This document shows positions 21,503 to 46,516 of a DNA stretch of 64,000 nt, one piece after another; position 1 is the first letter of the stretch, and every line of letters begins with the position of its first letter. The notes below the pieces were generated by a model. That model made no database searches, was not told the origin of the DNA, and saw nothing but the letters and a program-made list of their open reading frames with translations. The stretch is from a virus. The stretch spans positions 32,001 to 96,000 of IMG/VR virus record IMGVR_UViG_3300032214_001486. The stretch is one strand, 5' to 3'. A program made the translations under genes and the position numbers.

Positions 21503-22234
21503 CTACTTGCCCCGCACGGACTCCACGAGAGCAAGGGCCAGGGCGTACTCCAATAGGTGCTCATAGGACCATGCAAGATCGGACAGCGTTGCTTTTTGAG
21601 GCACCCCGTTGACAGACCAGCCGGAATTGCCTGTCTTTTTCTTGAACTTTAGGGTTTTGAGGCTGTTCACGAGGCCGGCGACAAGATATGCGTTGATCTC
21701 ACCCCATACTTCGGGTCCGTAGGACTGACCATAAGCCCGGATATTGCGGATTGTGCCCAAGGGGCCGGAGGAAACAGGGTCGGTAGAATGAACGTGGTCG
21801 TTGCTGAACAGCCGGACCATCAGCAGGTAGGTAGAATAGGTGCCTGGGTGGGGGTTATTCCACCGTTTTGTCGTGGGGTTCAGCGTTTGCGCGACAAACC
21901 GATACCCCTTGTTCTTTTTGTACTCCAGCCAGTACCGCATGAGCGTCCGGTGTCGCCCATAGGGGTAGTCCTCCACGACATACGCGGTGTTCTCGTCGGT
22001 ATGCCCATAGAGGACTTCGCCCTTTGGGTCAAATTCAAACGGGGCCCGTTCCCACAATAGCTCTGCGGTACGGATGGGGTTCGCCTCGATCCAGTCGAGC
22101 AGCCGGGCTTGCTCCGGGTAGGCGGCGAGCCAGTCTAATAGGTTCAAGTCGCTGCTGCCCCGCGCCGGGGTGAGCCGCCGCACAATCTTTTGGGCGGCCT
22201 TGTAGGCTAAGGGCTCGTACTTTTCGTCAGACAC
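21503..22234 (-). CDS. hypothetical protein with shared N-terminal module
   Basis: LLDWIEANPIRTAELL; TAYVVEDYPYG..RT..RYWLE..TLNP..WNNP..TY. Confidence 0.75.
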   Translation of the reverse strand: MSDEKYEPLAYKAAQKIVRRLTPARGSSDLNLLDWLAAYPEQARLLDWIEANPIRTAELLWERAPFEFDPKGEVLYGHTDENTAYVVEDYPYGRHRTLMRYWLEYKKNKGYRFVAQTLNPTTKRWNNPHPGTYSTYLLMVRLFSNDHVHSTDPVSSGPLGTIRNIRAYGQSYGPEVWGEINAYLVAGLVNSLKTLKFKKKTGNSGWSVNGVPQKATLSDLAWSYEHLLEYALALALVESVRGK

Positions 22235-22299
22235 GGGATACCTCGGGGGTGTATGGGGGGAAAGGGGCCAGTCTACCCTTTAGCGGCAGGCGCAAGCAA
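22232..22299 (-). promoter_or_regulatory. promoter plus RBS leader, copy 1
   Basis: TTGCTT-18 bp-TAGACTGGCCCCT..CCCCCGAGGTATCCC-GTG. Confidence 0.75.
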
Positions 22300-22348
22300 G
22301 CACGGGGCTCACGTTCCTGCGGCCCGCGCCGGCAGAATACCTTAACAC

Positions 22349-23182
22349 TCAACGCTGAGCCCTTAACTGATTTACTACCTGCCTAATCACCCCCCAAAAC
22401 AGCAAGAGCTTAAATAGGTGCGCCCAAGAGTCATCGTACTCCCCAAAGTTTTCGAGGGGAAGCCCCTGCTTTTTTCTCCACATTTCTTGTTGAATTGCCC
22501 CAATTATGGGCTGGATATGGGCTGTCGGGGCAAAGTGTGCCCTCCAGACAGCAGTTTTGGGGTCATTGTCGAGGATGCACACCCCGCAATCCTGTAGGGC
22601 TTTAAGTAGACTTTCGGGGTCATGGGCATCGTACTCGACCAGCCAAGGGTCGCGGATAACACGAGTAGAACCAACACTGATTTCAACCCCCCTTAGTACA
22701 ACAAAATCTGCGGAGCGGTGAAGTTCGGTGGGGGGTTTTGTCCTTGGGTCCATATTGTCCACAACGTCACTGATCGACATCGTTTCGTGGTTGGGCCACT
22801 GAGACTGCAAAATCAAGAGAGACGGACTTTTGCGGGTTGCGGCTTTGGGTACAACCCAAATATCCTTTATGTTACCTACGGATTGGCCTCCTTCTATTTC
22901 TTCCGTTTCTTTCTTTGCCTTTTTGTGCCATTTGGGCCAAGTACTCACAGGGATGGCCCGCGGGTCCGAGGGAATGACAGGAGGAAACGCTCGAAGAAAC
23001 TCGTTTACGATCAAAGTCGGCCAGCGGTTTCTGGTTTTTTCGTGCCCGTCCCCGTTCTCGGGGCTACCCTCACCACCGGAGGCTATAAGGTCGGGCAGGA
23101 CAGCCTGAAACACAGGCAGGGGCATCTTATCCACAAAGAGATCAAGAGCGGCCCAAATTTTAGGGGGGCTACGGTAGGACAC
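22349..23182 (-). CDS. hypothetical protein
   Basis: GTG start at 23182 set by the duplicated leader; in frame with ORF 22349..23278. Confidence 0.7.
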   Translation of the reverse strand: MSYRSPPKIWAALDLFVDKMPLPVFQAVLPDLIASGGEGSPENGDGHEKTRNRWPTLIVNEFLRAFPPVIPSDPRAIPVSTWPKWHKKAKKETEEIEGGQSVGNIKDIWVVPKAATRKSPSLLILQSQWPNHETMSISDVVDNMDPRTKPPTELHRSADFVVLRGVEISVGSTRVIRDPWLVEYDAHDPESLLKALQDCGVCILDNDPKTAVWRAHFAPTAHIQPIIGAIQQEMWRKKQGLPLENFGEYDDSWAHLFKLLLFWGVIRQVVNQLRAQR

Positions 23183-23247
23183 GGGATACCTCGGGGGCGG
23201 GCAGGAGGAGAGGGGCCAGTCTACCCCTTGGCGGCGATAGAAAGCAA
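23180..23247 (-). promoter_or_regulatory. promoter plus RBS leader, copy 2
   Basis: TTGCTT-18 bp-TAGACTGGCCCCT..CCCCCGAGGTATCCC-GTG. Confidence 0.75.
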
Positions 23248-23250
23248 GGG

Positions 23251-24366
23251 TTAGAGGGGTTCGCCGGGGCCGCGCCATACGCCGCCATAGACCGGGCCCT
23301 CGGAGCCGTCCCAGGTGCCGCCGTAGATGACAGCACCGCCGCTAATTTCGGCGTCGCCCTCAACGATGGTATCATTGTAGAGCTTGCACGTCCCTACTTG
23401 TGCCCGGCCACCAACGTAAACCCGGTCGTGAAGCTGAGCATCATCATAAACCTGGGCTCCGTCGCACACTTGGCTATGGCCGTAAACGCAAGCACCGCCA
23501 ATGACGACGGCATTATCGCCTACATAGCTATCGTCCGTCACCAGGGCTTCGTCCCCGACCTGGGCGCTGCCCGATACCAGCGCCCGACCCGACACCGTAG
23601 CGGCCCCGGAAACCTCTGCGTCGCCCCTGATCTCAGGAGTACCCGCTAAGGTTGCGTTGTCCTTTACCACGGCATCATCGAACACAAACGGACCTGCGGA
23701 CGGGTCTAAGCCTTCAATATCGACCGTGCTCTCGATTACGCCCGCACCCTCAACGTAGCGCAGCCGGTTGAGTTTGGTATCGGTATTTTCCAGCTCGTTA
23801 AGGTACTGTAGGCATTTCTCCAAAAAATCGCCGTAGATGCTGTAGTCAACCTGTTTAGCCTTATACCCACGGCCAACTTTGTAATCTACCCATTTTTTGT
23901 GGGTGTAGGTCAAACGGGAAGCCTGATAGTCATACAATTCGTCTACGGTCTTGTCGATTGCCGCGGCTGCGTCTGCTCGGAAATCCTCGGCCCAACCCTC
24001 AGTGTACCCTTCTTCTCCTGCGGCCCAATCGAAGATATTGTCTACTTCGTTACTAATTTCGTGGTAGTCGTCGTGCTCAGACTTGAACCCCTGGATATGG
24101 GCGTTCACCTTGACCATGTATTGCTTGAACACGCCCAGGATGTAGCAGTAGGCGGCGATTGCATCCACCTTACCCTTCTGCCGCTCTTTGTCCCTCCGCT
24201 CAATCAAGCCCTTGGCGAGAAAGGCCCCGTAGTACAGCGGCTTGCTTTGGTACTTCTTGTCCTTTGGGCTGTTCGGCTTTAGCTTCTTTTGGATCTTATT
24301 TTCGCAAACGCCGTAGGCGCTGGCGCCCCGCTGAATGAGCACGCTTGGGTCTTGGGTGTAAGGCAT
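23251..24366 (-). CDS. protein with C-terminal hexapeptide left-handed beta-helix
   Basis: V.G.A.V repeats ending GGTWDGSEG. Confidence 0.8.
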   Translation of the reverse strand: MPYTQDPSVLIQRGASAYGVCENKIQKKLKPNSPKDKKYQSKPLYYGAFLAKGLIERRDKERQKGKVDAIAAYCYILGVFKQYMVKVNAHIQGFKSEHDDYHEISNEVDNIFDWAAGEEGYTEGWAEDFRADAAAAIDKTVDELYDYQASRLTYTHKKWVDYKVGRGYKAKQVDYSIYGDFLEKCLQYLNELENTDTKLNRLRYVEGAGVIESTVDIEGLDPSAGPFVFDDAVVKDNATLAGTPEIRGDAEVSGAATVSGRALVSGSAQVGDEALVTDDSYVGDNAVVIGGACVYGHSQVCDGAQVYDDAQLHDRVYVGGRAQVGTCKLYNDTIVEGDAEISGGAVIYGGTWDGSEGPVYGGVWRGPGEPL

Positions 24367-24395
24367 GGTGTGTGTCCTCTGGTCGAAAGCAGAAA

Positions 24396-25418: not shown

Positions 25419-25446
25419 GGCGTACCTCGCAGGGAAAAGCCCCGCC

Positions 25447-25495: not shown

Positions 25496-26080
25496 CTAAT
25501 CGTCAACCTTTGCCTTCCTCCGCTTGCTTGTCACCGGGTAGTGCTTATTCATCCAGGCTTTCACGGCTCCGTAGCGTTCACCGTAGGGTATCTGCCCGTA
25601 GTCGTGCGCGACATACATATCCTTTAGGTATTTCGCGGCGTCCTGACTCCAGATGCGACGGGCTTCTTCCTGCTGTTCGATGGTAATGGCGCCCGTATCT
25701 GCTCGGTCTGCGAGTACCCGTTGAATGTCCGAGACAAACATTCGCTTTACGAAGATGCCCTGTAGGGCGCCGTAGAAGTCTGCCGCCAAGCTACCGGGGG
25801 AAGGGGCCGAGCCGCGCACAAGGAACCCGCCATCGCCCCTTTCAGGGTAAGAGCTTTGTGCCCACGCTGCGATGTTCTCCCGCGTCGGGGGCAGCCGTAG
25901 TCCCGGCTGGGCCTCAACCGCAGCGTAGATCAGCCGGGCGGTCTTGCTTTCGTTCTGGTCTACCCATTCGCGCAGACCAGGGCTCTCCCGCTCCCGCAGC
26001 GTGATCTCCCGGTCTACCAGCCGCCACAACGCCGCCGCTTTCAGCCGCAACGCAAATTCTGTGTCTCGGTCTGTGGTCAT
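25496..26080 (-). CDS. hypothetical protein with shared N-terminal module
   Basis: PGLREWVDQNESKTARLI; ATGA overlap with upstream gene. Confidence 0.75.
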   Translation of the reverse strand: MTTDRDTEFALRLKAAALWRLVDREITLRERESPGLREWVDQNESKTARLIYAAVEAQPGLRLPPTRENIAAWAQSSYPERGDGGFLVRGSAPSPGSLAADFYGALQGIFVKRMFVSDIQRVLADRADTGAITIEQQEEARRIWSQDAAKYLKDMYVAHDYGQIPYGERYGAVKAWMNKHYPVTSKRRKAKVDD

Positions 26081-28539
26081 GTCGTCCTCGGTCCTTGTAG
26101 CTGCTCGTCGGTGAAGGTGCCTTCTTCTTCGCCGTTAACGTACTCAACGTACAGGCCGGGCAAGTTTTTACTTATGCGTGTCGATCCTACGCTGACCCGA
26201 TAGAACCCCAACCCGTCGTCTGTCTTGTCACCTTCGGCCCCTCTGTTCTCGTCGGTGTTATCGTCGTCGTCAGACCTGTACTTTTTGCGAAACCCAATAT
26301 CTGTGTGCCACGTTACGGGTTGCTCTGACAAAAGCTGTGTCATTCTGTTCGCATAGCCATCGCTGCCCGGCAAGTAAGGCCAATATGCCCGCCGTAGGAA
26401 GTAGTCGCTTTGGTCCTCTACGGATTGTGTGGGGAGAACCCTTCCAAACGCCTTAGTGAAGTCCGCCGCATCAGCGACAGCCCAAGAGGGTGTGTAGCGG
26501 GTCGTGTCCCGCCGCATTGAGTCAAACCGGCGTTTAAGGTAATCTGCGATATTCTCTCCCCCCTCTTTCCGGTCACGCGCACCCCGAGCTTTCTTATACA
26601 CTTCGTCTTGGATGCCGTAATACTTATGGATAAATGTTGCGAAGGTGTAGTACATATTCACGACGAGCAGAGCCAAATACTTGGCCCATCGACTACGGAC
26701 GCTTTTGACCTGTTCGACTACATCGGAAGGCAGCAGATTTTCGCACAGCAGCACATCGGGGTTGACGATCCAACCGTCCTTAGAAACGCAGAATTTCGCA
26801 AAAACATCGGCCACGACTTGCAAATCGTTATCCAGGGCCCCAAGGCGACCCGCGGCTGTATCGACACCAGACGAAAATAAGCAAGCGTCGGCCTGTCTGT
26901 AATTCAGGGCCCCCCGGCTTTCTTTCACAAGCAGGTCAAGGCAATCATTGACCTTCCGCGCTGCGGCTTGATACTCCGCGAGTAGCTGGGGGTTACAGAA
27001 AGAGAAGGGCTGGATATTCCCCCTAAAGTTCTTTGCGTACAGCCGAGCAAAGGGGTCGTTACGCCACGTTTGCTCGTCAAGATCGTAGGAGAATGGGCCC
27101 AGCAGCAATTCATTGAGGCGGTGGAAGGCATTGAAGAACGTGTGTGGTGTCTCCCGCAAAGGATCGCCGGGTTTGGCCTTGGAGCCTTGTAGCGGGGGGT
27201 GTACGAAGTCAATAAGCACCACAGACTTCCGCTTTTTGGCTTCCTCAGACGCCCTCTTGTAGAATTCCTCGCTCCGATAATTGTTAGGGGCGATCATAAA
27301 GGACAGGCGCAGCGAGGGTAGCCCCCGCTCCAAAGCGAGGCGATCAACGTGGTCTAAGCCCTTAGAGAATTTCTCTTTAGCGTCCTGCCGGAGCATGGGC
27401 CCAAAGTAGTAGTGAGCGGCGCCCTGCTTCCCCTTGAATTCATTTTGCCAGGAGAGCAGAGGGTTTGCACGGTAGCCGTTGGCCCGCGTTTTCGATTGCG
27501 TGTCGGGGGCGACCTTGCGGAAGCCACTATCCCCCTCATAAGGGATGAATTTCTTGTCAAAGAGGTTAGGTAGGTCCAGCCGGATACGGTAGCCCGACTT
27601 CGTGGCCTTTGTCGCTTCGATGACACCGCAAATCTGCGCTTCGGTAAATCCACCAAGTCTCTTAATGACAGCGCAGACGCGATCTCCGGCCGCTATCCCC
27701 TGACTCGACATACGCCCCGCGATCTTGTCTTTGTGTTCTTGCAGGTAAGCGTTGATCAGCAGGTCAATCTTGGTTTGGTTCTTTTCAAGGAATACCTTGT
27801 ACTCAGGGCTGCTTAGGTACTGATTGCGTCCGCCATATTCCTCGTATTTCCCCTCCATGTAGGCTAAGTATTCTGTGTAGGACTGTAGGCTCGGCTGTTT
27901 TTCCGGTATGACACCGGGTACACCTGGGCGCAACCGTTCTTCTGTGAACCCAGCATTGAAGGCAGTATACTGATCAATTGAGGTGCCGGCCGTGAATACC
28001 ACGCAGGGACCGCTGGTGAGGCGGTCTATTGCGATATTCTGAGCAGGAACGTGAGACAGACCCGCCTTGCCGGACAGGAGGCCGATTTCGCGCGCAGCCC
28101 GTTTCGTTTCATCCAGGCTGAGCTTGCCTTGGGGTGTGACCGTAGCAGCGAGGGTGTTCACCAGCATCTTTAGGTCAGCAGCTAAGCCTTTGTACTGGCC
28201 CCGAGCCGACCCCACAGACCACTCCCTGTTTCCCAGGATCAAGGTGCGGCCCGCCTTGCCATCCCGCATGACGCTGGGCGGGTTTGGGATGAATTCGTAA
28301 AGGCCGTCTGCCTGCGGGTCTGGACTTAGGTCCACACCATAGGCCAGCAGGACCGGGCGCAGCAGCAGAGGCAGGAACGGGTCAAGCCCTACAGCATCCC
28401 GCGCGTCCAAGGCGTCTGCGATTAGATCAAAGGTACGGGGTATATTTTGATCTACCCACGCTTTCAGCGCAGGTTTACCCTTGATCTTGGTCGATAACCG
28501 CCTGTAGACGCGGCCTTGTGTTTCGTTGACGGCTTTCAT
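26077..28539 (-). CDS. large multidomain hypothetical protein (shared N-terminal module, internal RANGYRANP)
   Basis: PALKAWVDQNIPRTFDLI; GAGGACACCGACC-ATG leader. Confidence 0.8.
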   Translation of the reverse strand: MKAVNETQGRVYRRLSTKIKGKPALKAWVDQNIPRTFDLIADALDARDAVGLDPFLPLLLRPVLLAYGVDLSPDPQADGLYEFIPNPPSVMRDGKAGRTLILGNREWSVGSARGQYKGLAADLKMLVNTLAATVTPQGKLSLDETKRAAREIGLLSGKAGLSHVPAQNIAIDRLTSGPCVVFTAGTSIDQYTAFNAGFTEERLRPGVPGVIPEKQPSLQSYTEYLAYMEGKYEEYGGRNQYLSSPEYKVFLEKNQTKIDLLINAYLQEHKDKIAGRMSSQGIAAGDRVCAVIKRLGGFTEAQICGVIEATKATKSGYRIRLDLPNLFDKKFIPYEGDSGFRKVAPDTQSKTRANGYRANPLLSWQNEFKGKQGAAHYYFGPMLRQDAKEKFSKGLDHVDRLALERGLPSLRLSFMIAPNNYRSEEFYKRASEEAKKRKSVVLIDFVHPPLQGSKAKPGDPLRETPHTFFNAFHRLNELLLGPFSYDLDEQTWRNDPFARLYAKNFRGNIQPFSFCNPQLLAEYQAAARKVNDCLDLLVKESRGALNYRQADACLFSSGVDTAAGRLGALDNDLQVVADVFAKFCVSKDGWIVNPDVLLCENLLPSDVVEQVKSVRSRWAKYLALLVVNMYYTFATFIHKYYGIQDEVYKKARGARDRKEGGENIADYLKRRFDSMRRDTTRYTPSWAVADAADFTKAFGRVLPTQSVEDQSDYFLRRAYWPYLPGSDGYANRMTQLLSEQPVTWHTDIGFRKKYRSDDDDNTDENRGAEGDKTDDGLGFYRVSVGSTRISKNLPGLYVEYVNGEEEGTFTDEQLQGPRTT

Positions 28540-28555: not shown

Positions 28556-29611
28556 TTAGGCGGGGCGCTTGGCCTTGTGGGCTTTCAGGGCGGCTTGTGC
28601 TGCTTGGTACTGCTGCGTAGCCGATTGTAATTGTTGCTCTAAAGCCCTATACTCTGTCATGCTTTTTTTGTGGCTCCTGTCCGGCCCCCCAACTCTATCC
28701 CAAGCCTTGAGTCTCCCGTGTAGTGCTGACCGGGTGCGGTCAAGCTCGCGGGCCTGCTCTTGGAGTCGCGTAAACTCTGCCTCCCAAGCCGTGTTTGCCT
28801 CGGGTGCGGGGGACTCTACTCGTTTGGTCGGCAGCATTTCGCGTAAGCCTGGGAGTAAGACGGCGTTGAGCCAATTTTGGGCTTCCGCCCGCGTCGGGTT
28901 GTCTTGTAGCTTCCCGCACAAAAAGGAATAGTTCATATTCCAATTAGAAAGGGTTGGGCCTCCGTACTTCCCTGGGGGGAGGGCTAAGTATGCGGTTTGC
29001 ATCGCCACCACCTCGGGGTGCTTAGGTAGGGCCCCCCAGGCAGCATTTAGCCGGTCACGGTTGTACCGATCAACGCCGGGGGGCAGCGGAGGCGGCCAAT
29101 CGCTTGCGTCTGTCTGAGGCAAAAGCAAGGGGGCCGGGGCAGACCGGGTGTGCGCCCACCGGGGGCTAAGGGCATTAGACACCAGCGCCCCGGCAAAACG
29201 GTCCCGTACCGCTTTGAGAATGACTTGATCTTTGAGTTGATTAGAGGGAGAGTAGATTAGGCTGGGGGGATAGTTGTCAAAGATTTTGATGATAACGGTG
29301 TCTGTGTATTCTGTCGGCTGGATAAACCGATCAGCAGGCACCGTTACTCCCGGTACTTTGCGATAAACGGTCACGGGGCTACCGCTGTAAGTGTTGGGAT
29401 GAAAGGGGGCTTGTGCGGGCAGATACCAGAGCTTCGTCTGCACGGCGGGAAGTGGGGCTGTCTCCAACCCAATTCCGCGGCGTCTTAGCTCTGTTTCAAC
29501 CCAGCCGAGTAGAATGTCCTTGGGGGGAACAGTCTCCCAGCCTAATTTGTGGTCTATGTGTTTAGCGGCATTGGCAAGAACGTGGGCTAAGTACAATTTG
29601 CGCGTCGTCAT
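28556..29611 (-). CDS. hypothetical protein with C-terminal coiled coil
   Basis: 18-bp leader identical to that of the 28539 gene. Confidence 0.75.
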   Translation of the reverse strand: MTTRKLYLAHVLANAAKHIDHKLGWETVPPKDILLGWVETELRRRGIGLETAPLPAVQTKLWYLPAQAPFHPNTYSGSPVTVYRKVPGVTVPADRFIQPTEYTDTVIIKIFDNYPPSLIYSPSNQLKDQVILKAVRDRFAGALVSNALSPRWAHTRSAPAPLLLPQTDASDWPPPLPPGVDRYNRDRLNAAWGALPKHPEVVAMQTAYLALPPGKYGGPTLSNWNMNYSFLCGKLQDNPTRAEAQNWLNAVLLPGLREMLPTKRVESPAPEANTAWEAEFTRLQEQARELDRTRSALHGRLKAWDRVGGPDRSHKKSMTEYRALEQQLQSATQQYQAAQAALKAHKAKRPA

Positions 29612-29638
29612 GGTCGGTGTCCTCGGCGGGTTTGGGCC

Positions 29639-30229
29639 TTAGCGGCGTTGTCCGTTTTTGCGTTCCAGCGTCGGGTAGGGGGAGCGGGGGCCGAGCCAGC
29701 GCCCCGACGTGACCTCCCCTTCGGAGCCATCCCAGGTGCCCCCAAGGATCACGGCTGTACCCCCGATCTTTGCTTTGCCTGTGATGCGGGCGCGCCCGCC
29801 GACGTGGGCCTCTCCTGACACAATCGCGTGTCCGCCGACCTGAGCGACCCCTTTAACGGTTGCCCGCCCGCCAACGTGCGCGTTATCAGCGACGATAGCT
29901 TGCCCGCCGACGTTGGCTTGATCGGTGACCCGAGCGTTGCCGTAGATTTGGGCCCGCTCCAACGCGCGAGCGTTGCCGTCAAGGGTTGCAGCCCCGTAGA
30001 TTAGGGCTTCTCCCTGCGTGGTTGCGTTGCCCTTCACGGTGCCCCGTTCCCACACATGGCGGAAGCGGGAGATCCCTAATGCCCGGCGGATCTCCCGTTG
30101 AACCCAATAAAACCTACGGTATGCGTACTGCCACAACCGGGGGCGGCCGGCTAACTTCGCCCCCAGGGCTTCCCAGGCGCGCACGTCCCGGTCATCCTCG
30201 GGGGCGAACGGGGTTTTGATCGAAGGCAT
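29639..30229 (-). CDS. hexapeptide beta-helix protein, C-terminal paralog of 23251..24366
   Basis: V.G.A.V repeats, GGTWDGSEG; ends RKNGQRR. Confidence 0.8.
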   Translation of the reverse strand: MPSIKTPFAPEDDRDVRAWEALGAKLAGRPRLWQYAYRRFYWVQREIRRALGISRFRHVWERGTVKGNATTQGEALIYGAATLDGNARALERAQIYGNARVTDQANVGGQAIVADNAHVGGRATVKGVAQVGGHAIVSGEAHVGGRARITGKAKIGGTAVILGGTWDGSEGEVTSGRWLGPRSPYPTLERKNGQRR

Positions 30230-30277
30230 CCATCACCCTAAACAGCGTGAGCGAGCCTGCGAGGGCCAGCGCGGTAT

Positions 30278-30661
30278 TTAGCGAAGCCAAGCCCAGCCGG
30301 CTTCTGCGTTGCGCCAGCATAGCACAGGGCCGTTGGTGCTGATCCAAATTTCTTCTGTTGTCCCCCCGTTCTTGTCGGCCCAGGTATCGCAGCGGGCTTT
30401 GAGGCCGTCCAAGTATTCCGGGGTCAAGGCCGCTTTTAGCTCAGAGAACCGACCCTGACAGTCTCGGCAATAGAGGCGGCCGTCCTTTCGCCAAGTCAAA
30501 ATCAAGCGGGCCATCTGCGGGGCGTGCGTTTCGACAATCTCCCGCGCCTTTGCCTCCACCGTTGGGCCGCTCAATCCATGCTTACGGCTCATTTTCTGCG
30601 CGAGCAGTACAGCAGCGTTGGGCGCCACACCGAAGGAGACAAAGGGCTTGGGATCATACAT
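30278..30661 (-). CDS. hypothetical protein
   Basis: AGGT RBS; CRDC motif. Confidence 0.6.
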   Translation of the reverse strand: MYDPKPFVSFGVAPNAAVLLAQKMSRKHGLSGPTVEAKAREIVETHAPQMARLILTWRKDGRLYCRDCQGRFSELKAALTPEYLDGLKARCDTWADKNGGTTEEIWISTNGPVLCWRNAEAGWAWLR

Positions 30662-33022: not shown

Positions 33023-33084
33023 GACAAACCCCCGACCAGAGTGTAACCCGGTCGGGGGCAAGGGGCATGGGGCGTGGGGGCGGG

Positions 33085-33411
33085 CTACCGACGCCGTGTG
33101 CTCAGGCTCGGGCCTTGCTGCCCGTCCAGGGTGAATATGTACTCGATCCCGCTCCACACAAGGTAGAACGCAGGAACCCCCCGGTAAACGCCGCGGTAGT
33201 AGCCTACATGCCAATCCGTTGTGATACGGAAATCTTTTCTGTACCCCAACTGATACTGTATCCAGGCCCATTCCTCGGGGCCGAGCGCCCGTGCGAAGGT
33301 CTGCCGGCTGACTTCCTCCCCCGTCTCTTTGAGGGCGGAAATATCCTCCTCGGTAGATCCAATACAATTGGTCACAAAGCGGTATCGATCAGTGATGGGT
33401 GTCCGGGCCAC
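33085..33411 (-). CDS. hypothetical protein
   Basis: GAGGA RBS; F.TNC..DWHV.YY..WSGIEYIF. Confidence 0.7.
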   Translation of the reverse strand: MARTPITDRYRFVTNCIGSTEEDISALKETGEEVSRQTFARALGPEEWAWIQYQLGYRKDFRITTDWHVGYYRGVYRGVPAFYLVWSGIEYIFTLDGQQGPSLSTRRR

Positions 33412-37299: not shown

Positions 37300-38217
37300 T
37301 TAGGGCTCCGTAGGCGGGAATTCGACGCGCCAAGCCTGGGTTGTGCCGACAGCGGCCTTCGCTTTGTGTGAGTTGGTGCCGGACTCTATCGTAACACCGA
37401 CCAGATCCTTGTGGGCGCCGGCTATGACCCGTACCGTTGTGCCGATGGCGATGTTTTTGTCTTTCCCGTCCTCCCGCTTCAATTCATCCTTGCGTATCCA
37501 GCGGGTGTAGCCGAGCAAGGCTTCCAACCGCCGTTCTGCGTGCTCTGCGAAAGGCGGCTTCACCCGCATCGGTTTGATCGGACGGTAGTTAGCGACGAGG
37601 CGCAGAAATTCGGTGTCTCTGGACCCCAGGATTTCAGCGTTGACGCTCCGTACCCAGGCCCGATCTTCGTCCGACATGCGGGGCATAGAGAGCATCGCCC
37701 GCGCCCCACGATCAAACCAGTCGGCTATCTTCTGCTCTGTCTCGTCTTGGCTCTGCTCGTCCTTCCGTACATACAGGGTTTTCGCTACCCCTGCTTCGGT
37801 GACCCGTTTGAGGGCGCCGTCGCTGGTCAGCGCGATCAGCAGCCACTTCGCTTGGGTTTCGTCCATCCATTCCGGGTTCTTGCCCGACCGGATGATCGCC
37901 CGGACTTTGTGCTTGTCTCGGTCTGAGAACAGGGCGGGCAGCGTTGCCGGGGAGAATTCAAAGCTACGCCCGGCCTGCAAGGCAGGGCCGGGCGAGTAAA
38001 GGAACAGATCGTACACGTCGGCGTACTTGTCATCGAGCTTGTCTAAAGCGTGGGCCAGCCCTTCCTTTGCGTCAAGCCGATCTTCAACAAACTTATACAA
38101 CCGGGTTCTATGCGTCTGCATCCAAGCAAGCAACCGCTGCGAGCGGTCGTCTTGCCGCGAGCTAAGCAGCTTTTGGACTTTTTCCAGCACACTATCGGGA
38201 GTCAAAGCAGCGGGCAT
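37300..38217 (-). CDS. hypothetical protein with weak shared N-terminal module and C-terminal KOW-like motif
   Basis: RLLAWMQTHRTRLYKFV; IAIGTTVRVIAGAHKDLVG. Confidence 0.75.
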   Translation of the reverse strand: MPAALTPDSVLEKVQKLLSSRQDDRSQRLLAWMQTHRTRLYKFVEDRLDAKEGLAHALDKLDDKYADVYDLFLYSPGPALQAGRSFEFSPATLPALFSDRDKHKVRAIIRSGKNPEWMDETQAKWLLIALTSDGALKRVTEAGVAKTLYVRKDEQSQDETEQKIADWFDRGARAMLSMPRMSDEDRAWVRSVNAEILGSRDTEFLRLVANYRPIKPMRVKPPFAEHAERRLEALLGYTRWIRKDELKREDGKDKNIAIGTTVRVIAGAHKDLVGVTIESGTNSHKAKAAVGTTQAWRVEFPPTEP

Positions 38218-38373: not shown

Positions 38374-38820
38374 TTACCCGTTCCGGTACTTCTCCAGGGC
38401 CAAGCGAAGGCAGGGCATAACGCCCGGCGCGAGGGGATAGTGTGGCAAATCTTCCACCGCCACCCAGGCGAAAGCGTCGTGTTCGCCGTCCGCGAGAACA
38501 GTAGCTTGGCCGTTGTCGTAAGTCAAGTAGATGGCCCACGACCGTACTGTGCCGGCGTACCACAAGGCCCGAGGCCCCGAGGCCCCGATTTCCTCAGCCA
38601 TTTCGCGCAGCGCCGCGGCCGGCGGCGCCTCCCCCCGCTTCACATGCCCACCGGGCAGGCCCCACAGCCCCGGCGCCCAGGGGGCGGTCTTTCCCCGCAG
38701 CAGAAGCAGTACCCGCAAGGGCGCGCCGCCCTGGACGATGACGACCAGGGCGGCGGTTGCGGCTGCGGGAGCCTGGGCGGCGGCTGCGGCAGCCTGGGCG
38801 GCGGCAGCCCTGGGGTTCAT
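38374..38820 (-). CDS. Nudix hydrolase
   Basis: Nudix box GGHVKRGEAPPAAALREMAEEIG; EH..F.W. Confidence 0.9.
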   Translation of the reverse strand: MNPRAAAAQAAAAAAQAPAAATAALVVIVQGGAPLRVLLLLRGKTAPWAPGLWGLPGGHVKRGEAPPAAALREMAEEIGASGPRALWYAGTVRSWAIYLTYDNGQATVLADGEHDAFAWVAVEDLPHYPLAPGVMPCLRLALEKYRNG

Positions 38821-41800
38821 CGGTGCCGCTTCGGGACTAAGGCGCTGACCCGCCGGGGGTTCTCAGTCACCTTCCGGTCAACGATCTGGCGCAGCTTAAA
38901 CTGCCCCGGCTGGACCTTAAACTTGGGAATGTCAGCCAAGGTCAAGGGGGGCACTACAAAAGACCCATCGTTATCATCCGTCCGCACCAATCCGTTGTTT
39001 TTGAGCACACGCGGGATTGTAACTACCTTAAAGTACCCCGCTTCAATTCCAGCCTTAGCTCTTTCAGCGGGTAACCCAGCGGCCTCTAAAGCAGCGTAAG
39101 TGGCGGAACCCCCCACACTTTGCAGATACTTGTAGATTTCTCTTTGTTTGGGTCGGGACGTACCGGGATCACGGATCGCCTGCACCCCCTTGTCCGTGAA
39201 CGCATCGTCCTCGGCGGCGGCGTCCCGCACCATCTGTTCGTCAATGATGGTATCTTCTTCTGTTAGACCACTGAGCCCCTCGATATTGGCCCGCAGAGTC
39301 TCCATAAGGTCGGTAGCGTATTCCTCCTCTACTACCTTATCCCCCTTCTCCTGTAATTCTTCAAACTTATCCTCACCTACAACGTCACCGATGATCTGCC
39401 GCTTCCGCTCGATAAGGGCGTTTAGCTGCTCGTCAATCGTATCCTTGACGACCAAGAATTCAATCGTCACGTCACGGGTCTGCGTGTACCGATAAGTACG
39501 GTCCTCAGCCTGTTCTTCCCAGGCCGGGACATACCAACGGTCCACAAACAGGGTGTAGTTAGCGCGGGTGAGGGTGATACCCTCGCGCGCCGCCCGTGTC
39601 CCGATGAACACCTTGACCTTGGAGTTATCCCGGTCCTTCTGGAACGCTTCTACTCGACGACGGCGCTCCAAGGGGGGCACCTTCCCGTCAATATAGACAT
39701 AGGGGATGCTGCGGGCGTCCAGGGCTTGCCGAATGAGTCCCATATTCTCGTCAAACTCAACAAACACCACAACGGGGTCGTTAGGGTGCTCTTTCAGCCG
39801 CGTAACGATAGTCTCGATGGCGAACGGCGTCTTGACCTTCGCTACTGCCTGCCGGGCAATCAGGTAGACGACAAAGGCGGTGCCGGCGATCTTCTTGGGG
39901 TTGTATTCAAGCTCGTTTGCCATTTCGGTCGCTTGGTAGACCGTAATTTTGCCCTTTCCATCATGGATGAATTTGAGAGCGGCGTCGATACGCTTCTCCC
40001 GAATTCGCTGGATTACTACCTCCAGCACCTTAGCCATTTCTGTGTCGTAAATCTTCCGCTGCGCCGGAGTCAGCAGGACTTCCCGGTACACACGGGTCTT
40101 TTCTCCCAGGCCCAGGGGCACTTGATTTTTCAGGCGGCGGACCATGTAGCACCGGAGCATGACGCCAAGGCGCTTCCGCAGGTTGTCCACCGTATCAAGC
40201 GTGGGGATATTGCCCTTGAAGGACGTGTTTTTCTCCGAGGGTACAAAGTTGTTCGTGTACTTGTAGTAGCCCTCCCCGTCTAAGGCTTCACCAAAGGCTA
40301 CCGGGTCCACCATCGAAAGCTGGGGCCACAATTCCTCCAGCTTAGCGTTATCCAGGGCGGTGCCCGACATAACGATTGAATACTCGGCCTGATAGGACAG
40401 CTCTCGGGCGCCAATGCTGCGAACGCTATCAAATTTCTTGCCGTAGTGAGACTCGTCTACGATCAAGGTCTTGATACGGTCGTAGTAACGGGGGCCGTAC
40501 TTGCTGGTGCTCGACCAACCCATGATGATGAAGTCAGCGTTGCGCTCAGCATCGGTTAGCTCTCCATCCCCTAACTTACCCAAAATGGGCCCTGTACCTA
40601 CGAAAACCTTAGCGCCGGGATACCAACGATCAATCTCCGCAGCCCAATTGTAGAGCACGCTGGACGGGCACACGACTACAACGGGGAGTGTTTGCGGCGC
40701 CCTCATGCGGACAGCCGTGATCGCCTGCACGGTCTTACCTAAGCCCATCGCGTCGCCGATCAACGCCCGGCCCCCGCGCAGCCATACATACGCAGCCCCG
40801 ATCTTCTGATACTCCATAAGGCCCATCATTTTAGGCCCGCCGGGGTAGTCTTTGTTAAGGTACTGCATCTTGTCCCAATCATACATATTCTCAATCTGAG
40901 CACGCTCCGGTTGAGGTATATCGGAGAATTTGGCCGCAGCGGCCACAGGGAACGCCTTGGGGCAATTGAGCATATAGGCGGACAACAGAGCAATCCGCAT
41001 CGTGTAGGACAACACGAATTCATTAGACAAGTCAAGGGCGCGGGCAAGGCGCGGCACATAGCCGGCCCGGATCTCACCCAGAACAACCGGGACCGGAAAC
41101 GGCGCATACTTCAGGTTTTCTTTCAAGTCAATTCGCTTGCCCCAGCCGGGCATGAGTTCATATGTATCTTCCCCATACCCGGTCTGAGCCAAGTTAGCCG
41201 AGTAGTAGTTGAGAATGACCTCCTTTTGGTACTGCCCTGTCTCCTTGTCTACTATCTTGTTCCCCCTAATGTCTGTCCGGTACTTGGCGTACAGGAACCA
41301 ACCGCAAATTTCACTCACGTTGTCTGTGCCAATAATGACGATCTTACTCTTTGTCGCGTCTGTAGCAGCCGCCAGAGCACGCAAACCCCAGGCGTCCCCC
41401 AATTGCGGTATGAAATCGGTGCCCACCATAGAGGTAGGTACGACAAACACACCCCGACAGGCAGAGAACGAAGGTTCTGTCAATTCTTTGGCTACAGCAG
41501 CAATTGTGTCAATCGACCGACTCCAAGAAGGCAGGGGAGTTTCACCCTTAAACCCGGAGGATTGAATTTTGCTTTGGCTCTGCTCTCGCGCGTCTCCCCC
41601 TTTAATCCGTACCATTTCTGCGGCCTTGTCCTCCTTGGGCAGAAGGCGGGACCACTGGTACACAAACGAAAGATCGCGCACAATCTGTTTGCTGTCCCCA
41701 CTCACCAATTCTTCCCAGGTGTCGTGGAGCTTGGGTGTCATTGTGCTCAAATCAACAGTTTCTCCTCCACCCAACGCAAGGCGCCGGGGCGCCCTGGCTG

Positions 41801-43247
41801 TGTATACTTCCTTCTCGATCCCCTGGGGAGTGACCATCTGCCCAGGGCTTAGCTGTACCTGGGCATCGAGCCCGGCCTTTTCCCAAGCCTCGGCAAGAGC
41901 AGGCAGGTAAGCGAAAACGGCCGGGATCTCTTTCAAGTCCCCCTCAGAGTCCGCGCCTTCTCGCCATTCTTGCAGGAATACGGCAAGCTGCGTGGGCGTT
42001 GTCGGGACAAGCACCTTATACTTGTCTACCGTCAGGCGCTTACCATATCGGTTAAAATAGCCAGAGAACGAAAACAGCGCCGATACCGACTCACCGGGTA
42101 GACCGCCCCGCTTTTGGAACCGATCTCGGGTTGTGAGCCCGACCATAACCCCCGCGGGGGTTACCTCCCAAGAAAAGGCCGGGTGCCTTTGGTCAGGCGC
42201 GTAGTATTCGCCCTGGTGCAAGGCACCAGTAACCTTCCCCGTCGCGGGCCGGGGTAGCCGGGCAGATTGCTTACTCCCCTTTTTGATCTGCCGGGGCGCA
42301 GGAGCCTTAGCTGCTTGCTCAGTCCACCCTTCCCAAGAAGTCTGCAAGCGATCAGCGGCGTTGGGGTATTGATCCCGCAGGTAGTCAATAAGTAGCGGTA
42401 CTTCCTTGATCGAAATGTCGAGATACCAATTCTTGTATCCGCCCTTCTCCTCGGCTCGGGGCACGGCGTTGCCCCCAGCCTCGTTGATGGCGTTTTGAGC
42501 GGTAAACAGGTCTAAGGTCTTTGTAGATAGCGACAAGTACCCTGTTTTGGGGTCATAGCGCCAATTGAGGTTCCCGGTCTTGGTCAGAGGGATAGAGCCT
42601 CGGGCCAACGGTGTCCGCGAATAGATGTGGAAGTCCTGCTCGTCGGGCTTCTTGGCCCCAGGTTTCGTCAGCCGTGCGGGCTTTAAGTAATTCTCTAAGG
42701 TGCGGACAGCCCCCATCACCGCTTGGCGGGGTAGCTGAGTCTTGCTGTGTGTAATCAGCAGCCGGGCTGCGTACAGATAATCTTGATCGTCTGCATAGCC
42801 GCCGGCCACGCGGGAGAGGAAAGCCCGCAGCGCCCCGTTTGTGGCTAAAGAGAACCCAGCGTCATCGTTATACGGCTTGGGTAGCGGGGGCGGGAGAACT
42901 GCAAGGTCAGCTACCATCCCGACAACCGCATCCTTTGCGGCTTGCACGTTAGGGTAAGTGTAGACCGCCTCGTTGGACACCTGAGCAATCGAGCCCGTAG
43001 TCTTGCGAATTACCCGCTTTTCGCGTAATTCATTCTTCTTCTCTTTCAAGGCATTAAACAGCGCCTTTTGAATTCGCTCTTGGTGTGCAAAGTAGTACGC
43101 CCTTAGTGGGCCGGTCAACCTCGACTCTAACCGCTCGATTAGATCCAGAACGGTTACAGAGAACAAGGCCGGGGGATTATGGCCCGGAATGGAGGGAACG
43201 GGGGGCTCCCCCACGGGGCTTTCCATTTCGCTGTCGTTGCGGCGCAT
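38817..43247 (-). CDS. large SNF2-family helicase with ~800-aa unknown N-terminal region
   Basis: YQKIG, DAMGLGKT, DESH, SGT, EGITL, QAEDRTYR; GGAG RBS before MRRND. Confidence 0.9.
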   Translation of the reverse strand: MRRNDSEMESPVGEPPVPSIPGHNPPALFSVTVLDLIERLESRLTGPLRAYYFAHQERIQKALFNALKEKKNELREKRVIRKTTGSIAQVSNEAVYTYPNVQAAKDAVVGMVADLAVLPPPLPKPYNDDAGFSLATNGALRAFLSRVAGGYADDQDYLYAARLLITHSKTQLPRQAVMGAVRTLENYLKPARLTKPGAKKPDEQDFHIYSRTPLARGSIPLTKTGNLNWRYDPKTGYLSLSTKTLDLFTAQNAINEAGGNAVPRAEEKGGYKNWYLDISIKEVPLLIDYLRDQYPNAADRLQTSWEGWTEQAAKAPAPRQIKKGSKQSARLPRPATGKVTGALHQGEYYAPDQRHPAFSWEVTPAGVMVGLTTRDRFQKRGGLPGESVSALFSFSGYFNRYGKRLTVDKYKVLVPTTPTQLAVFLQEWREGADSEGDLKEIPAVFAYLPALAEAWEKAGLDAQVQLSPGQMVTPQGIEKEVYTARAPRRLALGGGETVDLSTMTPKLHDTWEELVSGDSKQIVRDLSFVYQWSRLLPKEDKAAEMVRIKGGDAREQSQSKIQSSGFKGETPLPSWSRSIDTIAAVAKELTEPSFSACRGVFVVPTSMVGTDFIPQLGDAWGLRALAAATDATKSKIVIIGTDNVSEICGWFLYAKYRTDIRGNKIVDKETGQYQKEVILNYYSANLAQTGYGEDTYELMPGWGKRIDLKENLKYAPFPVPVVLGEIRAGYVPRLARALDLSNEFVLSYTMRIALLSAYMLNCPKAFPVAAAAKFSDIPQPERAQIENMYDWDKMQYLNKDYPGGPKMMGLMEYQKIGAAYVWLRGGRALIGDAMGLGKTVQAITAVRMRAPQTLPVVVVCPSSVLYNWAAEIDRWYPGAKVFVGTGPILGKLGDGELTDAERNADFIIMGWSSTSKYGPRYYDRIKTLIVDESHYGKKFDSVRSIGARELSYQAEYSIVMSGTALDNAKLEELWPQLSMVDPVAFGEALDGEGYYKYTNNFVPSEKNTSFKGNIPTLDTVDNLRKRLGVMLRCYMVRRLKNQVPLGLGEKTRVYREVLLTPAQRKIYDTEMAKVLEVVIQRIREKRIDAALKFIHDGKGKITVYQATEMANELEYNPKKIAGTAFVVYLIARQAVAKVKTPFAIETIVTRLKEHPNDPVVVFVEFDENMGLIRQALDARSIPYVYIDGKVPPLERRRRVEAFQKDRDNSKVKVFIGTRAAREGITLTRANYTLFVDRWYVPAWEEQAEDRTYRYTQTRDVTIEFLVVKDTIDEQLNALIERKRQIIGDVVGEDKFEELQEKGDKVVEEEYATDLMETLRANIEGLSGLTEEDTIIDEQMVRDAAAEDDAFTDKGVQAIRDPGTSRPKQREIYKYLQSVGGSATYAALEAAGLPAERAKAGIEAGYFKVVTIPRVLKNNGLVRTDDNDGSFVVPPLTLADIPKFKVQPGQFKLRQIVDRKVTENPRRVSALVPKRHR

Positions 43248-43368
43248 AGGCACTCCAGGGTAAGACAAGGGCAAGGCAGGGCCTTTCGCGGTTACCCTAC
43301 CATAGACGCATATAGCCCGCAACCCCCTTTCGAGGGCTGCGGGCTGCGGGCTTAGGGGCAGACTTGGC

Positions 43369-46038
43369 TTAGGCCCTTTTCAGCCATTCGATTGTGTCAA
43401 GGCGGCCGTCCTGCTCCAGCGTTTCGATCAATTGCTGGTAGCACTTGGGGCACGACTGCGCGACCTTTAGCTCTTGGCGTAGCTTCTGCTCTGCGGTCTG
43501 GATCGACTGACGCTCGGGGTCAGGTATATCCAAAACCACAGACAACAGGCGGCTGAACGCCGGGATCAAGGGGTAGGTGCGGAAAGCTATATCCTCTCGG
43601 ATAATCGAAAATCCCTCGTCGTGACCCTCCCCGTGACTAACTCCGTAGACGTAGTGGGCTAACTCGTGGCAGATCAGGCCGTGCAGGTACGCTGCTAAGT
43701 CCCGAGAGTTGTTATACCCTTTTTTCGCCTCCTTGAAGAAGAAGGGGTTTACTCCAATTGTGCTGATCTTGGAGATGTAGATAGCAATAACATCGTCGTT
43801 AAGGACGAAGCCGGGGTATACCCGTCCCGTCACCTGCCCATAAGTGTCGATCACCATGCGAAGAAGTTGATCCCATAGAACAAGCACAGGAAGATACTTA
43901 GCGTACTCTTTCTTGAATTTCCGGGCGCCCTCCGAATTATACTTGCCGTCTTTGTTGAGAAATTGCTTTCGACTAATCAGTAAGCCCGCGAAAGCCCCAA
44001 AGGGGTTGCCAAAGAGGCGCTGACGTTTCGCGTCGTCAATATCGTATTGATCTACCAGACCAAAGCGCAGCAGGTCGTTTAGAACGTCTGTCAAGGCGGA
44101 CTCAACGCTGAGGGCGAAGCTGATACCGCCTACTTCCGGCCGCGCTGCGTTGTCCTGTACGGTATCCAATGCCTGATACAGCAGATTTAGATCAGCCAGA
44201 TATAGGTGGTATGGGTGTCTTAGTTGCTCGGCCAAGATAGAGAATACATCGCGGTGTATCTCGCTATACCGTTTTTTGCCTGCAATTTCATTGTACGCTT
44301 TGAGGTAGTCCGTCAGAACAGTGACGCTGATCCGGTAAATTTCTATGGGGTCCACTCTCCGCTGCTCTGCTTCCCTGATTTCGTCCTCTTGGTCTAAGGC
44401 TTTATCCATCGCCTTTTCAGTCGGCGTGGCTACCCGTTGTGGGCTTTGGGGTGTCTCTGGCACATGATCCGACGCTACATCACCGGCTTTTTCTTCGCGT
44501 ACTTGTGCTTTGAGCTTAGCCCCCAGCTTTCGCTCCCCCCCTGCGGCTTGTTCTTTGCGGAAATCGCGGGCAACCTTAGCTCCCGCCTGAACAATGCTAA
44601 GTAAGTCAGCGTCGCCCAAAGCCTCAGCGACTTTTTTCTGAATTTCCTCTTGTTCCGGCGGCATAGTCGAAGATGCGCGCGGGTCGTACATTTCGTCCTC
44701 TTTGTCCTCTTTGACCGTTACTTTCTTCTCACAGAAGTCACGGAAAGAGTTAAAGGCGCTATGCTCGGCGCGTGTGTTGAATTTGTCCCGCCCGGTGTTA
44801 AAGGGGTATCCCTCGGTCCCCGGCACACCCGACCTTCCTTGCAGCGCGGACAGCCCCGGAGAGTCTAAATCTACTGTCATCCCTCGACGCCCATCAAAGT
44901 AAGGGGTGACAACCTCACCATTAAGGGTTAAGGTAATGTCCGGCAGATTATTGAGGGCCAGCAGTCTGCGAATTCGGACTTCAATGGGGTCATAATCCTC
45001 AACGACGGTGTAACCGTCTTTATTTAGGTAACTCACTCGGTCAAAGTGAGGCACCTTAAAGACAGTTAGCTCTACGCCGGCAACGTAGGGCATACCCGTT
45101 TCAATGGGTTCCTGCTTGTTTAACTGCTCAGAAGTAACGAACAAGTCTTGGGTCCGAATTTCCCACGACCTGTCCGCAGAGCAGCCAAGGATAACAGCCT
45201 TGGCTACACCAAAACCTCCCGTTGTGCCCGAAGTCGCATAGTCCAGCGTATAGTCATAATCTAAGGTCTTGTCATAAGACTTTTTTGGCTGCTGGAATTG
45301 AAGCAAGCCATTGAGCCTAATGTAGTAAGCGCCGTCATTTGCGTTGAGCCCCCGCTTGTATCTCCGCACAGCTAAACTAATGGAGGCATCAAAGTCCCCG
45401 CGGGCCAAGGCTTCGTTGTACTTATCGCTTTCCCCGATGCTAAGGAAAGATTGGATAATCTTTGCGTCCATGCCCGTGCCGTTGTCTCGAAAGATCAACG
45501 CGTTTTGGGTACGGTCTACCACCACATCAAAACGGCCCTCTCCCTTCTTGATTTTGCGCTGCTCGACCGCTTTGCGTATCGCATCCACAGAATTTTGTAG
45601 GGCCTCGCGCACCGCGAGTAGAGGTAGGTCTTTGCTTTCGTAGGTATTTTTAGTAAGTAGCTCCCACATGCGCGGTATGTTCGCCCCGTAAGCCAAAACC
45701 GGGCCCTTACCGTTGCGGCGCAGGCGGCGCAGGTGGCGCAGGACGGCGACCGGGTTGGTGCGGGCGTCTACCGCTGCGGCTGCTTGCTTGGGCGTGCGGC
45801 GTACACCCGCCTTCACCACCTCGATATGCTGCTGGCGAGTCAACGCAGGGGCCATGCCCCGCAGACGAGCACGAGCCCGGACGCGAACCGGGTCCATCTG
45901 ATCCAACATCGCTTGCAGCAGCCCCAGGTAGGGCTTTAACTCAGGATTGGTCGAGATACCGGGGATCTCCCGCTCGGCGTACTGCAAAAACTCTTGCGTC
46001 GTCATCGCACGGGTGTCTTGTGCTGGTGTCCAAGCCAT
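43369..46038 (-). CDS. GHKL (HSP90/MORC-like) ATPase fused to C-terminal HExxH zincin domain
   Basis: REALQNSVDA, DNGTGM, GESDK, GGFGVAK; CHELAH..HDEGF. Confidence 0.8.
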   Translation of the reverse strand: MAWTPAQDTRAMTTQEFLQYAEREIPGISTNPELKPYLGLLQAMLDQMDPVRVRARARLRGMAPALTRQQHIEVVKAGVRRTPKQAAAAVDARTNPVAVLRHLRRLRRNGKGPVLAYGANIPRMWELLTKNTYESKDLPLLAVREALQNSVDAIRKAVEQRKIKKGEGRFDVVVDRTQNALIFRDNGTGMDAKIIQSFLSIGESDKYNEALARGDFDASISLAVRRYKRGLNANDGAYYIRLNGLLQFQQPKKSYDKTLDYDYTLDYATSGTTGGFGVAKAVILGCSADRSWEIRTQDLFVTSEQLNKQEPIETGMPYVAGVELTVFKVPHFDRVSYLNKDGYTVVEDYDPIEVRIRRLLALNNLPDITLTLNGEVVTPYFDGRRGMTVDLDSPGLSALQGRSGVPGTEGYPFNTGRDKFNTRAEHSAFNSFRDFCEKKVTVKEDKEDEMYDPRASSTMPPEQEEIQKKVAEALGDADLLSIVQAGAKVARDFRKEQAAGGERKLGAKLKAQVREEKAGDVASDHVPETPQSPQRVATPTEKAMDKALDQEDEIREAEQRRVDPIEIYRISVTVLTDYLKAYNEIAGKKRYSEIHRDVFSILAEQLRHPYHLYLADLNLLYQALDTVQDNAARPEVGGISFALSVESALTDVLNDLLRFGLVDQYDIDDAKRQRLFGNPFGAFAGLLISRKQFLNKDGKYNSEGARKFKKEYAKYLPVLVLWDQLLRMVIDTYGQVTGRVYPGFVLNDDVIAIYISKISTIGVNPFFFKEAKKGYNNSRDLAAYLHGLICHELAHYVYGVSHGEGHDEGFSIIREDIAFRTYPLIPAFSRLLSVVLDIPDPERQSIQTAEQKLRQELKVAQSCPKCYQQLIETLEQDGRLDTIEWLKRA

Positions 46039-46042
46039 AGGA

Positions 46043-46516
46043 TTAGGCCCCCATCTGAGTAGCAAGGTCAAACAAACGAGAAACAGCAGACGGCGCGCTG
46101 GCGACCTCCGCCGGGACAGTCACTTGGCCCCGCTTGCGTTCACCGGGGGTCATATTGCGTATGTCTGTGAAGATACTGAGTACCTGGGCAGCCTTTGTGG
46201 GGTCTTGCTCCCACATACCCAAGGTCACTTCCGCCAGCTTATCCAGCCGTTTGAGCAGCGCAGCATCGACGGGCAGCGTGCCTCGACTCACAGCCAGCCG
46301 GAGAGCCTGTACGTTGCTCAGCATGGACGGAAGCGTGGTCGGGGGCCGACCGCGCAGGCTGACAATATCCTTGGGGGCTGCGGTGCGGGCTTCCCAGGTA
46401 GTCTTGACGTACTTGGCCCAATACGCCTTGTTTTGCTGCAAATGAGCAGACAAGTAAGGCGCGCGTTGGGCGACCGTAGCCAATACAGCATTGACTTGAT
46501 CTTTGGTGAGGATCAT
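46043..46516 (-). CDS. hypothetical helical protein
   Basis: AGGAG RBS; promoter TTGACC-17 bp-TATGAT just upstream. Confidence 0.7.
   Translation of the reverse strand: MILTKDQVNAVLATVAQRAPYLSAHLQQNKAYWAKYVKTTWEARTAAPKDIVSLRGRPPTTLPSMLSNVQALRLAVSRGTLPVDAALLKRLDKLAEVTLGMWEQDPTKAAQVLSIFTDIRNMTPGERKRGQVTVPAEVASAPSAVSRLFDLATQMGA

Follow-up and report, generated by a model that had tools for sequence, protein, structure and literature searches.

We analysed a stretch of 64,000 nucleotides, here called the window, that covers bases 32001-96000 of the 104,974-bp IMG/VR record IMGVR_UViG_3300032214_001486, which comes from an uncultured freshwater virus and has an estimated completeness of 85%. From 21.5 to 50 kb the window consists of a single dense series of minus-strand genes. 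Four of these genes, with starts at 22234, 26080, 28539 and 38217, encode one homologous N-terminal module, which stands at the head of proteins of 243, 194, 820 and 305 amino acids (aa), respectively (Table 1). Nearly all proteins of the run are orphans in Pfam and PHROGs, the exceptions being two SNF2 helicases, a protein with a weak GHKL/HSP90-type N-terminus and a pair of beta-solenoid proteins.

An earlier interpretation, made from the letters alone (the sequence-only reading), had described the region as an array of seven large and otherwise unrelated proteins with a short helical module in common. All seven peptides that it quoted were found at the named minus-strand gene starts, and each of these starts (22234, 26080, 28539, 38217, 29611, 43247 and 46516) is preceded by a GAGG- or AGGA-type ribosome-binding site. 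"Large" overstated the size of members that measure 194 to 820 aa, and three of the seven claimed members found no support. The corrected set comprises four proteins instead of seven and excludes the helicases.

Table 1. Module carriers and weak candidates, with coordinates in the window (ORF, open reading frame)
Feature	Position	Strand	Evidence and remarks
Module of 243-aa protein (ORF 21503-22234), residues 1-72	22019..22234	-	Motif, profile searches
Parts of the 243-aa module	22055-22102 (motif)		Helix 1 AYKAAQKIVRRL; tandem helix 2 LLDWLAAYPEQAR / LLDWIEANPIRTAELL; FEFDP at residues 66-70
Body of 243-aa protein, unnamed domain VVEDYPYG..RYWLE..NPK..WNKP	21503..22018	-	Homologue comparison
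Module of 194-aa protein (ORF 25496-26080), residues 1-66	25883..26080	-	Motif LREWVDQNESKTARLI at 25928-25975
Module of 820-aa protein (ORF 26077-28539), residues 1-88	28276..28539	-	Motif LKAWVDQNIPRTFDLI at 28420-28467; YEFIP at residues 81-85
Module of 305-aa protein (ORF 37300-38217), residues 1-92	37942..38217	-	Motif LLAWMQTHRTRLYKFV at 38086-38133; FEFSP at residues 86-90
157-aa protein, N-terminus LSAHLQQNKAYWAKYV	46043..46516	-	5.7 bits, E 0.14; aligned in the register of the sequence-only reading
351-aa protein, LLGWVETE at residues 34-41	28556..29611	-	4.7-5.2 bits, E 0.18-0.29
1476-aa SNF2-family helicase, quoted match LRAYYFAHQERIQKAL	38817..43247	-	4.0 bits, E 0.48

The module is about 60-90 residues long, and its alignment begins at residue 1. 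It opens with a basic helix (AYKAAQKIVRRL, VLEKVQKLL), followed by a short charged linker. A middle helix of the form L-L-x-W-[IVLM]-[DEQG]-x-[NHK] then leads through a turn into a third helix, R/K-[T/hydrophobic]-x-x-hydrophobic-hydrophobic, all three helices being assigned from crude propensities only. The module is always N-terminal, and its tryptophan lies at residues 28-48. About one third of the residues are charged, with a net charge that ranges from -4 to +5 and an isoelectric point (pI) from 4.8 to 10.5 across the families. Helix 2 is tandemly duplicated in the six closer orthologues of the 243-aa protein, where LL[DE]W[IL]xAxP is kept in both copies, and the duplication is missing from the orthologues of 47-51% identity (P0012-P0014).

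A second motif, [FY]EFxP, was exposed by the hhalign comparison of the 305-aa and 820-aa family profiles. Six-frame translation of the record gives 129,242 residues, in which the pattern [FY]EF.P has just 3 matches, all of them just past the module in carriers. In the 243-aa, 820-aa and 305-aa proteins the motif begins at residues 66, 81 and 86, at a spacing from the third helix of 6, 41 and 42 residues, respectively; the 194-aa protein lacks it.

Homology of the four N-terminal modules

Of the 1187 six-frame ORFs in the complete record, the strict pattern L..W[VI][DE].N..[RK]T..L[IL] matched 3, those of the 243-aa (residues 45-60), 194-aa (residues 36-51) and 820-aa (residues 25-40) proteins, a count that is circular because the pattern was derived from these same three proteins. 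When the 22 ORFs of the run were compared by blastp, the 194-aa and 820-aa proteins were the sole pair to be linked, through their N-termini (E 7e-5), with a hint between the 820-aa and 305-aa proteins at E 0.09. A profile built on the three N-termini ranked the 305-aa protein next (E 0.08). A 15-sequence profile of the three other families raised this protein to 22.1 bits and E 8.3e-6 among the 1187 ORFs, with the next entry at E 1.5. The same outcome was obtained for each family in turn: in leave-one-family-out profiles the omitted protein always came fourth, directly behind the three training families, with E values of 8.3e-6, 4.7e-5, 4.2e-4 and 4.4e-3, against 0.4-1.5 for the best non-member. 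The 305-aa protein scored 23.7 bits, compared to a maximum of 9.4 among 6800 shuffled N-termini. Finally, a profile search of the record with a 14-row alignment (A5) returned exactly the four carrier sites at E <= 10, and a profile that included all four families revealed no fifth member in the record.

The orthologues point in the same direction. The 820-aa protein has just three homologues (82-86% identity), in which the helical motif and [FY]EFxP are kept. The motif is also kept in the nine orthologues of the 305-aa protein (64-95% identity), with variants (an N/H exchange, an 'NPDR' turn and, once, W to H) like the changes seen in the 243-aa family, and in the two orthologues of the 194-aa protein, P0005 and one encoded by the contig Ga0194121_10026637. 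The three strong instances at 22234, 26080 and 28539 are therefore real, since orthologues keep the motif and the leave-out profiles recover each of them.

It could be argued that the resemblance is due to chance, or to a plain duplication limited to the 26080/28539 pair, given that single-family profiles are weak across families (the 21503-family profile reached only E 9.1 with the 25496 protein) and that hhalign aligned the 305-aa and 820-aa families only over residues 28-92 and 24-87, with a probability of merely 7.8% and E 0.0045; this explanation, which we hold to be highly improbable, is already contradicted by the combined profiles, which retrieve each omitted member far above the 1183 other ORFs, by the recovery of the 305-aa protein and the four-site search of the record, by the exclusive occurrence of the separate [FY]EFxP motif in three members, and by the invariably N-terminal position of a module that orthologues conserve. 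The profile searches recovered four proteins, more than that pair.

Regarding the weaker matches proposed by the sequence-only reading, the one at 38217 turned out to be a true member, those at 46516 and 29611 were not significant, and the one in the SNF2 protein at 43247 was unsupported. These candidates were scored in a set of 136 N-terminal entries, made up of 130 crude gene calls and 6 alternative starts, against a background in which 24 of 6800 shuffled N-termini and 2 of 106 natural internal segments reached at least 4 bits, the latter with a maximum of 4.2 bits. The 157-aa protein starting at 46516 is the best non-member when the 21503 family is left out (E 0.4) and lacks the [FY]EFxP motif; it is possibly a diverged member of the module family. 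For the 351-aa protein starting at 29611, the hhalign probability was 1.9% and the score lay near the background of internal segments. Its counterparts in sequencing-run relatives show at least six changes, with LLGWVET intact in those listed, which settles nothing on membership.

The SNF2 and Helicase_C domains of the 1476-aa protein lie at residues ~850-1280 as counted in the longest ORF. We rejected it as a member, the profile having aligned a neighbouring stretch and not the quoted one. One further site, at genome positions 384-821 on the plus strand and outside the window, scored 8.3 bits (E 0.023 among N-termini); it aligned from residue 38, was not N-terminally anchored and was not counted.

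Bodies, distribution and novelty of the module

Beyond the module, the four bodies are mutually unrelated by both blastp and hhalign, and the sequence-only reading was right in describing the downstream regions as such. The body of the 243-aa protein allowed the modularity to be followed outside the record. This protein has 15 homologues, of which eight are full-length (47-91% identity) and carry the module, whereas the seven shorter ones (133-186 aa) start at the body start and are devoid of it. Relatives of the body occur in 86 IMG/VR stretches, on contigs of between 4 kb and 408 kb; of the 80 loci that were kept, 76 match solely from residue 67 on. The core signature of the body is VV[ED][DN]YPYG ... 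RYW[LMI]E ... NPK ... WNKP, and no usable PDB, PHROG or Pfam match was obtained for it. The body represents a small domain of an unnamed family that is widespread in phages. The module profile found no match among the 17,790 ORFs of the 80 body loci (best E 0.39), and the one long N-terminal extension that was examined among them (L005) has a different sequence. Because the 243-aa body occurs alone, without the module, in many other phages, the module is an add-on.

Searches for the module elsewhere gave a similar picture. Among 1,835,955,588 representative proteins, an early three-sequence profile had 2 matches, which are orthologues of the 820-aa and 194-aa proteins. No match was found in JGI metagenome contigs with the 243-aa orthologue P0012 as query, nor in GTDB genomes with the 305-aa family. 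The module thus appears to be restricted to one virus lineage and was found nowhere else.

The sequence-only reading knew of no named family for the module, and none was found in Pfam, PHROGs, NCBIfam, PADLOC or PDB. The four full-length carriers matched no Pfam or PHROGs family at E <= 0.01 and no NCBIfam family at E <= 0.001, and three of them (the 305-aa protein was left out) had no PADLOC match at E <= 0.001. Module fragments run against Pfam at E <= 10 gave four unrelated chance matches, the best at E 0.022, and the best hit of the alignment profile among PDB sequences had an E value of 0.24. For residues 1-65 of the 305-aa protein, the structure neighbours in the Atlas consisted of generic helical segments from HD-domain and other proteins (TM 0.48-0.63) and were uninformative. 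The domain is unnamed, and its architecture is ordinary.

Possible functions of the module

Two explanations were rejected. A conserved RNA or DNA element, or a recombination cassette, underlying the motif was discarded, as the paralogous motifs share only 18-28 of 48 nucleotides and no direct repeat is found there; this low identity indicates that selection acts on the protein and not on the DNA. Membrane targeting was discarded because the module lacks a hydrophobic stretch and is rich in charged residues. Consistently, the spread of net charge and pI across the families argues against both a general nucleic-acid binder and a membrane anchor.

With a rough probability of 0.4, the reading that we favour is that the module represents a lineage-specific protein-protein docking domain with the LLxW helix as its ligand element. 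The conserved amphipathic LLxW helix would insert in a groove of one common putative partner, probably encoded by the virus, and docking would bring four different activities to one place, which may be the particle, the assembly site or the replication site. Helix 2 is the probable working element because it is tandemly duplicated in six orthologues, something that a core helix of a bundle would hardly tolerate. Since all four proteins carry the module, its partner would link these four orphans functionally.

Several observations weigh against the docking reading. When orthologues are compared, the module proves somewhat less conserved than the bodies (identities of 42-46% versus 52-56%, 50% versus 67%, and 69-72% versus 86-87%), which is not expected of a strongly constrained common interface. 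The N and T positions of the motif, which the sequence-only reading had written as fixed, vary in orthologues (N/H/K and T/V/F/M/L, respectively). Only four copies exist, and a structural or oligomerisation domain that was simply inherited would account for the data equally well. Moreover, the early profile used in the billion-protein search could have missed more distant carriers.

Self-association is the first alternative to be weighed. In this scheme the modules would form homo- or hetero-oligomers with one another and would thereby assemble the four proteins into a single complex that needs no separate receptor. The amphipathic helices have a conserved hydrophobic face (L-L-x-W-hydrophobic) that would suit such contacts, and the adjacent genes 25496 and 26077 overlap by 4 bases, as is typical of subunits that are made together. 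Nothing specific speaks against this arrangement, although the duplication of helix 2 is easier to reconcile with a ligand helix than with packing at an oligomer interface, and we judge this arrangement rather unlikely.

A second alternative is a special case of the docking reading and is not contradicted. The module would be a virion address that loads the four proteins into the particle for delivery with the genome, in the manner of the capsid targeting sequence (CTS) of T4 or of P1 DarB. The T4 CTS is a peptide of ~10 residues whose target is the scaffolding core of this tailed phage, and the prohead protease cuts it off. The extreme N-terminal position of the module on unrelated proteins would fit such an address, and one body works elsewhere without the module, as expected if a localisation function had been added. 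The internal proteins of T4 are diverse and have only the CTS in common (PMC3012670); as in our virus, a portable N-terminal element is the sole commonality of diverse proteins. Likewise, an N-terminal stretch steers the large P1 protein DarB to the particle; the P1 study (PMC9024508) places the signal in <30 residues and describes 30 N-terminal residues as enough to package a reporter. P1 packages a helicase-type anti-restriction protein (same study), and the array described here has SNF2 helicases.

In contrast to the T4 peptide, the element described here is a helical module of 60-90 residues, present in four diverged copies. The carriers number only four, their paralogous copies are strongly diverged instead of uniform, and the module is far longer than a peptide of 10-30 residues. 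No conserved cleavage-like site was seen in the alignments, and the record, which is ~85% complete, has no match to Pfam Peptidase_S78, Terminase_6N, the HK97-type Phage_capsid or Phage_portal. These negatives are consistent with a virus that is not a tailed phage, absence of the hallmarks being no proof at ~85% completeness. Because terminase, HK97-capsid and portal matches are lacking, the scaffold-core mechanism of T4 and P1 is not simply transferable. As to P1, the authors found no common consensus among the Dar proteins (PMC9024508), whereas here a consensus is common to the carriers but is not carried by the SNF2 proteins. Taken together, we consider a virion address improbable.

A variant of the same idea dispenses with the tailed-phage machinery, and we regard it as no likelier. 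A folded adaptor domain would load a small and changeable set of cargo, namely the four carriers and perhaps also the 157-aa (46516) and 351-aa (29611) proteins, into the particles of a large virus without tailed-phage hallmarks, and two elements would make the contacts, the LLxW helix and the strand with [FY]EFxP. If true, this would be a cargo system mechanistically unrelated to the scaffold-core route of T4 and P1.

A further alternative is that the module is a three-helix, helix-turn-helix (HTH)-like domain through which the four proteins would bind RNA or the viral genome. N-terminal DNA-binding modules on variable C-termini are common in phages, and Bro-N and KilA-N modules confer nucleic-acid affinity in other large DNA viruses. 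The order of helices is HTH-like, the first helix is basic, and the neighbourhood includes genes for SNF2 helicases and a GHKL-type ATPase. Yet two of the four families have a module of negative or neutral net charge, a conserved acidic residue adjoins the tryptophan, the HTH, Bro-N and KilA-N families of Pfam gave no match even at E <= 10, and the best PDB sequence score was not significant (E 0.24). Nucleic-acid binding seems to us a doubtful explanation.

Proteins with Bro-N or KilA-N, as well as MuF-type polymorphic toxins, occur as several paralogues per genome in which a conserved N-terminal domain precedes unrelated C-terminal regions, and the four carriers have this same architecture of one N-terminal domain on unrelated bodies. 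They differ in that the module has no Pfam match, no toxin-like payload was recognised and only a single virus lineage is involved. The layout of a constant N-terminus with a variable C-terminus, from which the sequence-only reading had argued for a polymorphic cargo or effector system, holds for the four proteins, but the traits of such systems were not found. There are four payloads, none of them recognisable as a toxin or enzyme in Pfam, PHROGs, NCBIfam or PADLOC. DNA-level cassette repeats, frequent in polymorphic systems, were not found, and there were no further carriers beyond orthologues in 1.84 billion representatives, 80 IMG/VR loci or a related 5.5-kb contig. The tag is not uniform in the genome either: paralogues share 2-9 of the 16 motif residues, which shows that there has been no homogenisation such as would be expected of a uniform tag.

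The module, as an unnamed domain, offers a first handle on an opaque 25-kb block of orphan genes in poorly understood freshwater viruses. If the docking partner were a component of the particle, the module would define how proteins are loaded in this type of virus and could be used for foreign proteins; if it were not, the module would represent ordinary domain shuffling.

Relatives and setting of the gene run

Relatives of parts of the stretch were detected in at least 20 sequencing runs from 16 studies, mostly of freshwater and also from a lagoon and a 'fungus metagenome'; those from four of the 20 runs listed were compared in detail. The 5.5-kb JGI contig Ga0194121_10026637 keeps the gene order 29611-type, 28539-type, 26080-type, and has an extra gene at 881-2467, between the 29611 and 28539 orthologues, for a 528-aa orphan without the module and without a homologue in the record (best blastp E 0.62). 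The module profile found no carrier on this contig besides the two orthologues. Another relative, a contig of one sequencing run (X16), fuses 29615 to 30278 via 53 different letters and lacks the 196-aa beta-solenoid gene (29639-30229). Given the 528-aa insertion and the missing 196-aa gene in relatives, the block is a region of gene gain and loss, which is compatible with accessory functions.

Closer relatives of the record as a whole were scarce. GenBank phages included no near relative, by DNA search or by search with the 820-aa protein, and no match was obtained when IMG/VR was searched with the 820-aa, SNF2, GHKL-type and 663-aa proteins. The DNA polymerase query retrieved the sole IMG/VR relative found, the 22-kb IMGVR_UViG_3300001450_000371, in which the family-A polymerase fused to a uracil-DNA-glycosylase (UDG) domain (UDG-PolA) has 58% identity over residues 9-902. 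No match to the module profile was seen in this 22-kb fragment, which may not span the array region. In the record, the gene for this UDG-PolA fusion lies upstream of the run on the opposite strand, together with genes for a DNA methylase, an SMC-like ATPase and a tyrosine recombinase.

Three paralogue pairs were observed in the block. The genes at 33413-35311 and 35308-37299 encode large related orphans of 632 and 663 aa (blastp E 5.6e-11). Those at 23251-24366 and 29639-30229 have a common beta-solenoid C-terminal domain (phrog_5070/7964, YdcK-type repeats). The third pair, 31208-33271 and 38817-43247, encodes the SNF2 helicases, with cores similar to those of DpdE/ZorD/DrmD-type helicases. 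Adjoining the 1476-aa SNF2 protein, the gene at 43369-46038 encodes an 889-aa protein with a weak GHKL/HSP90-type ATPase N-terminus, which scored E 6.8e-10 with NCBIfam PRK14083, far under the cut-off of that model, and E 7e-4 with Pfam HATPase_c.

A direct repeat of 71 nucleotides with 80% identity was also noticed, at window positions 22230-22300 and 23178-23248. Copy 1 comprises the start codon and 66 bases upstream of the 243-aa gene, and copy 2 lies just upstream of an internal GTG (23182) in ORF 22349-23278. Both copies end in GAGGTATCCC-GTG, and the hairpin AAAGGG...CCCTTT is conserved between them. The arrangement suggests 23182 as the real start of ORF 22349-23278 and a 5' leader element in common with the 243-aa gene.

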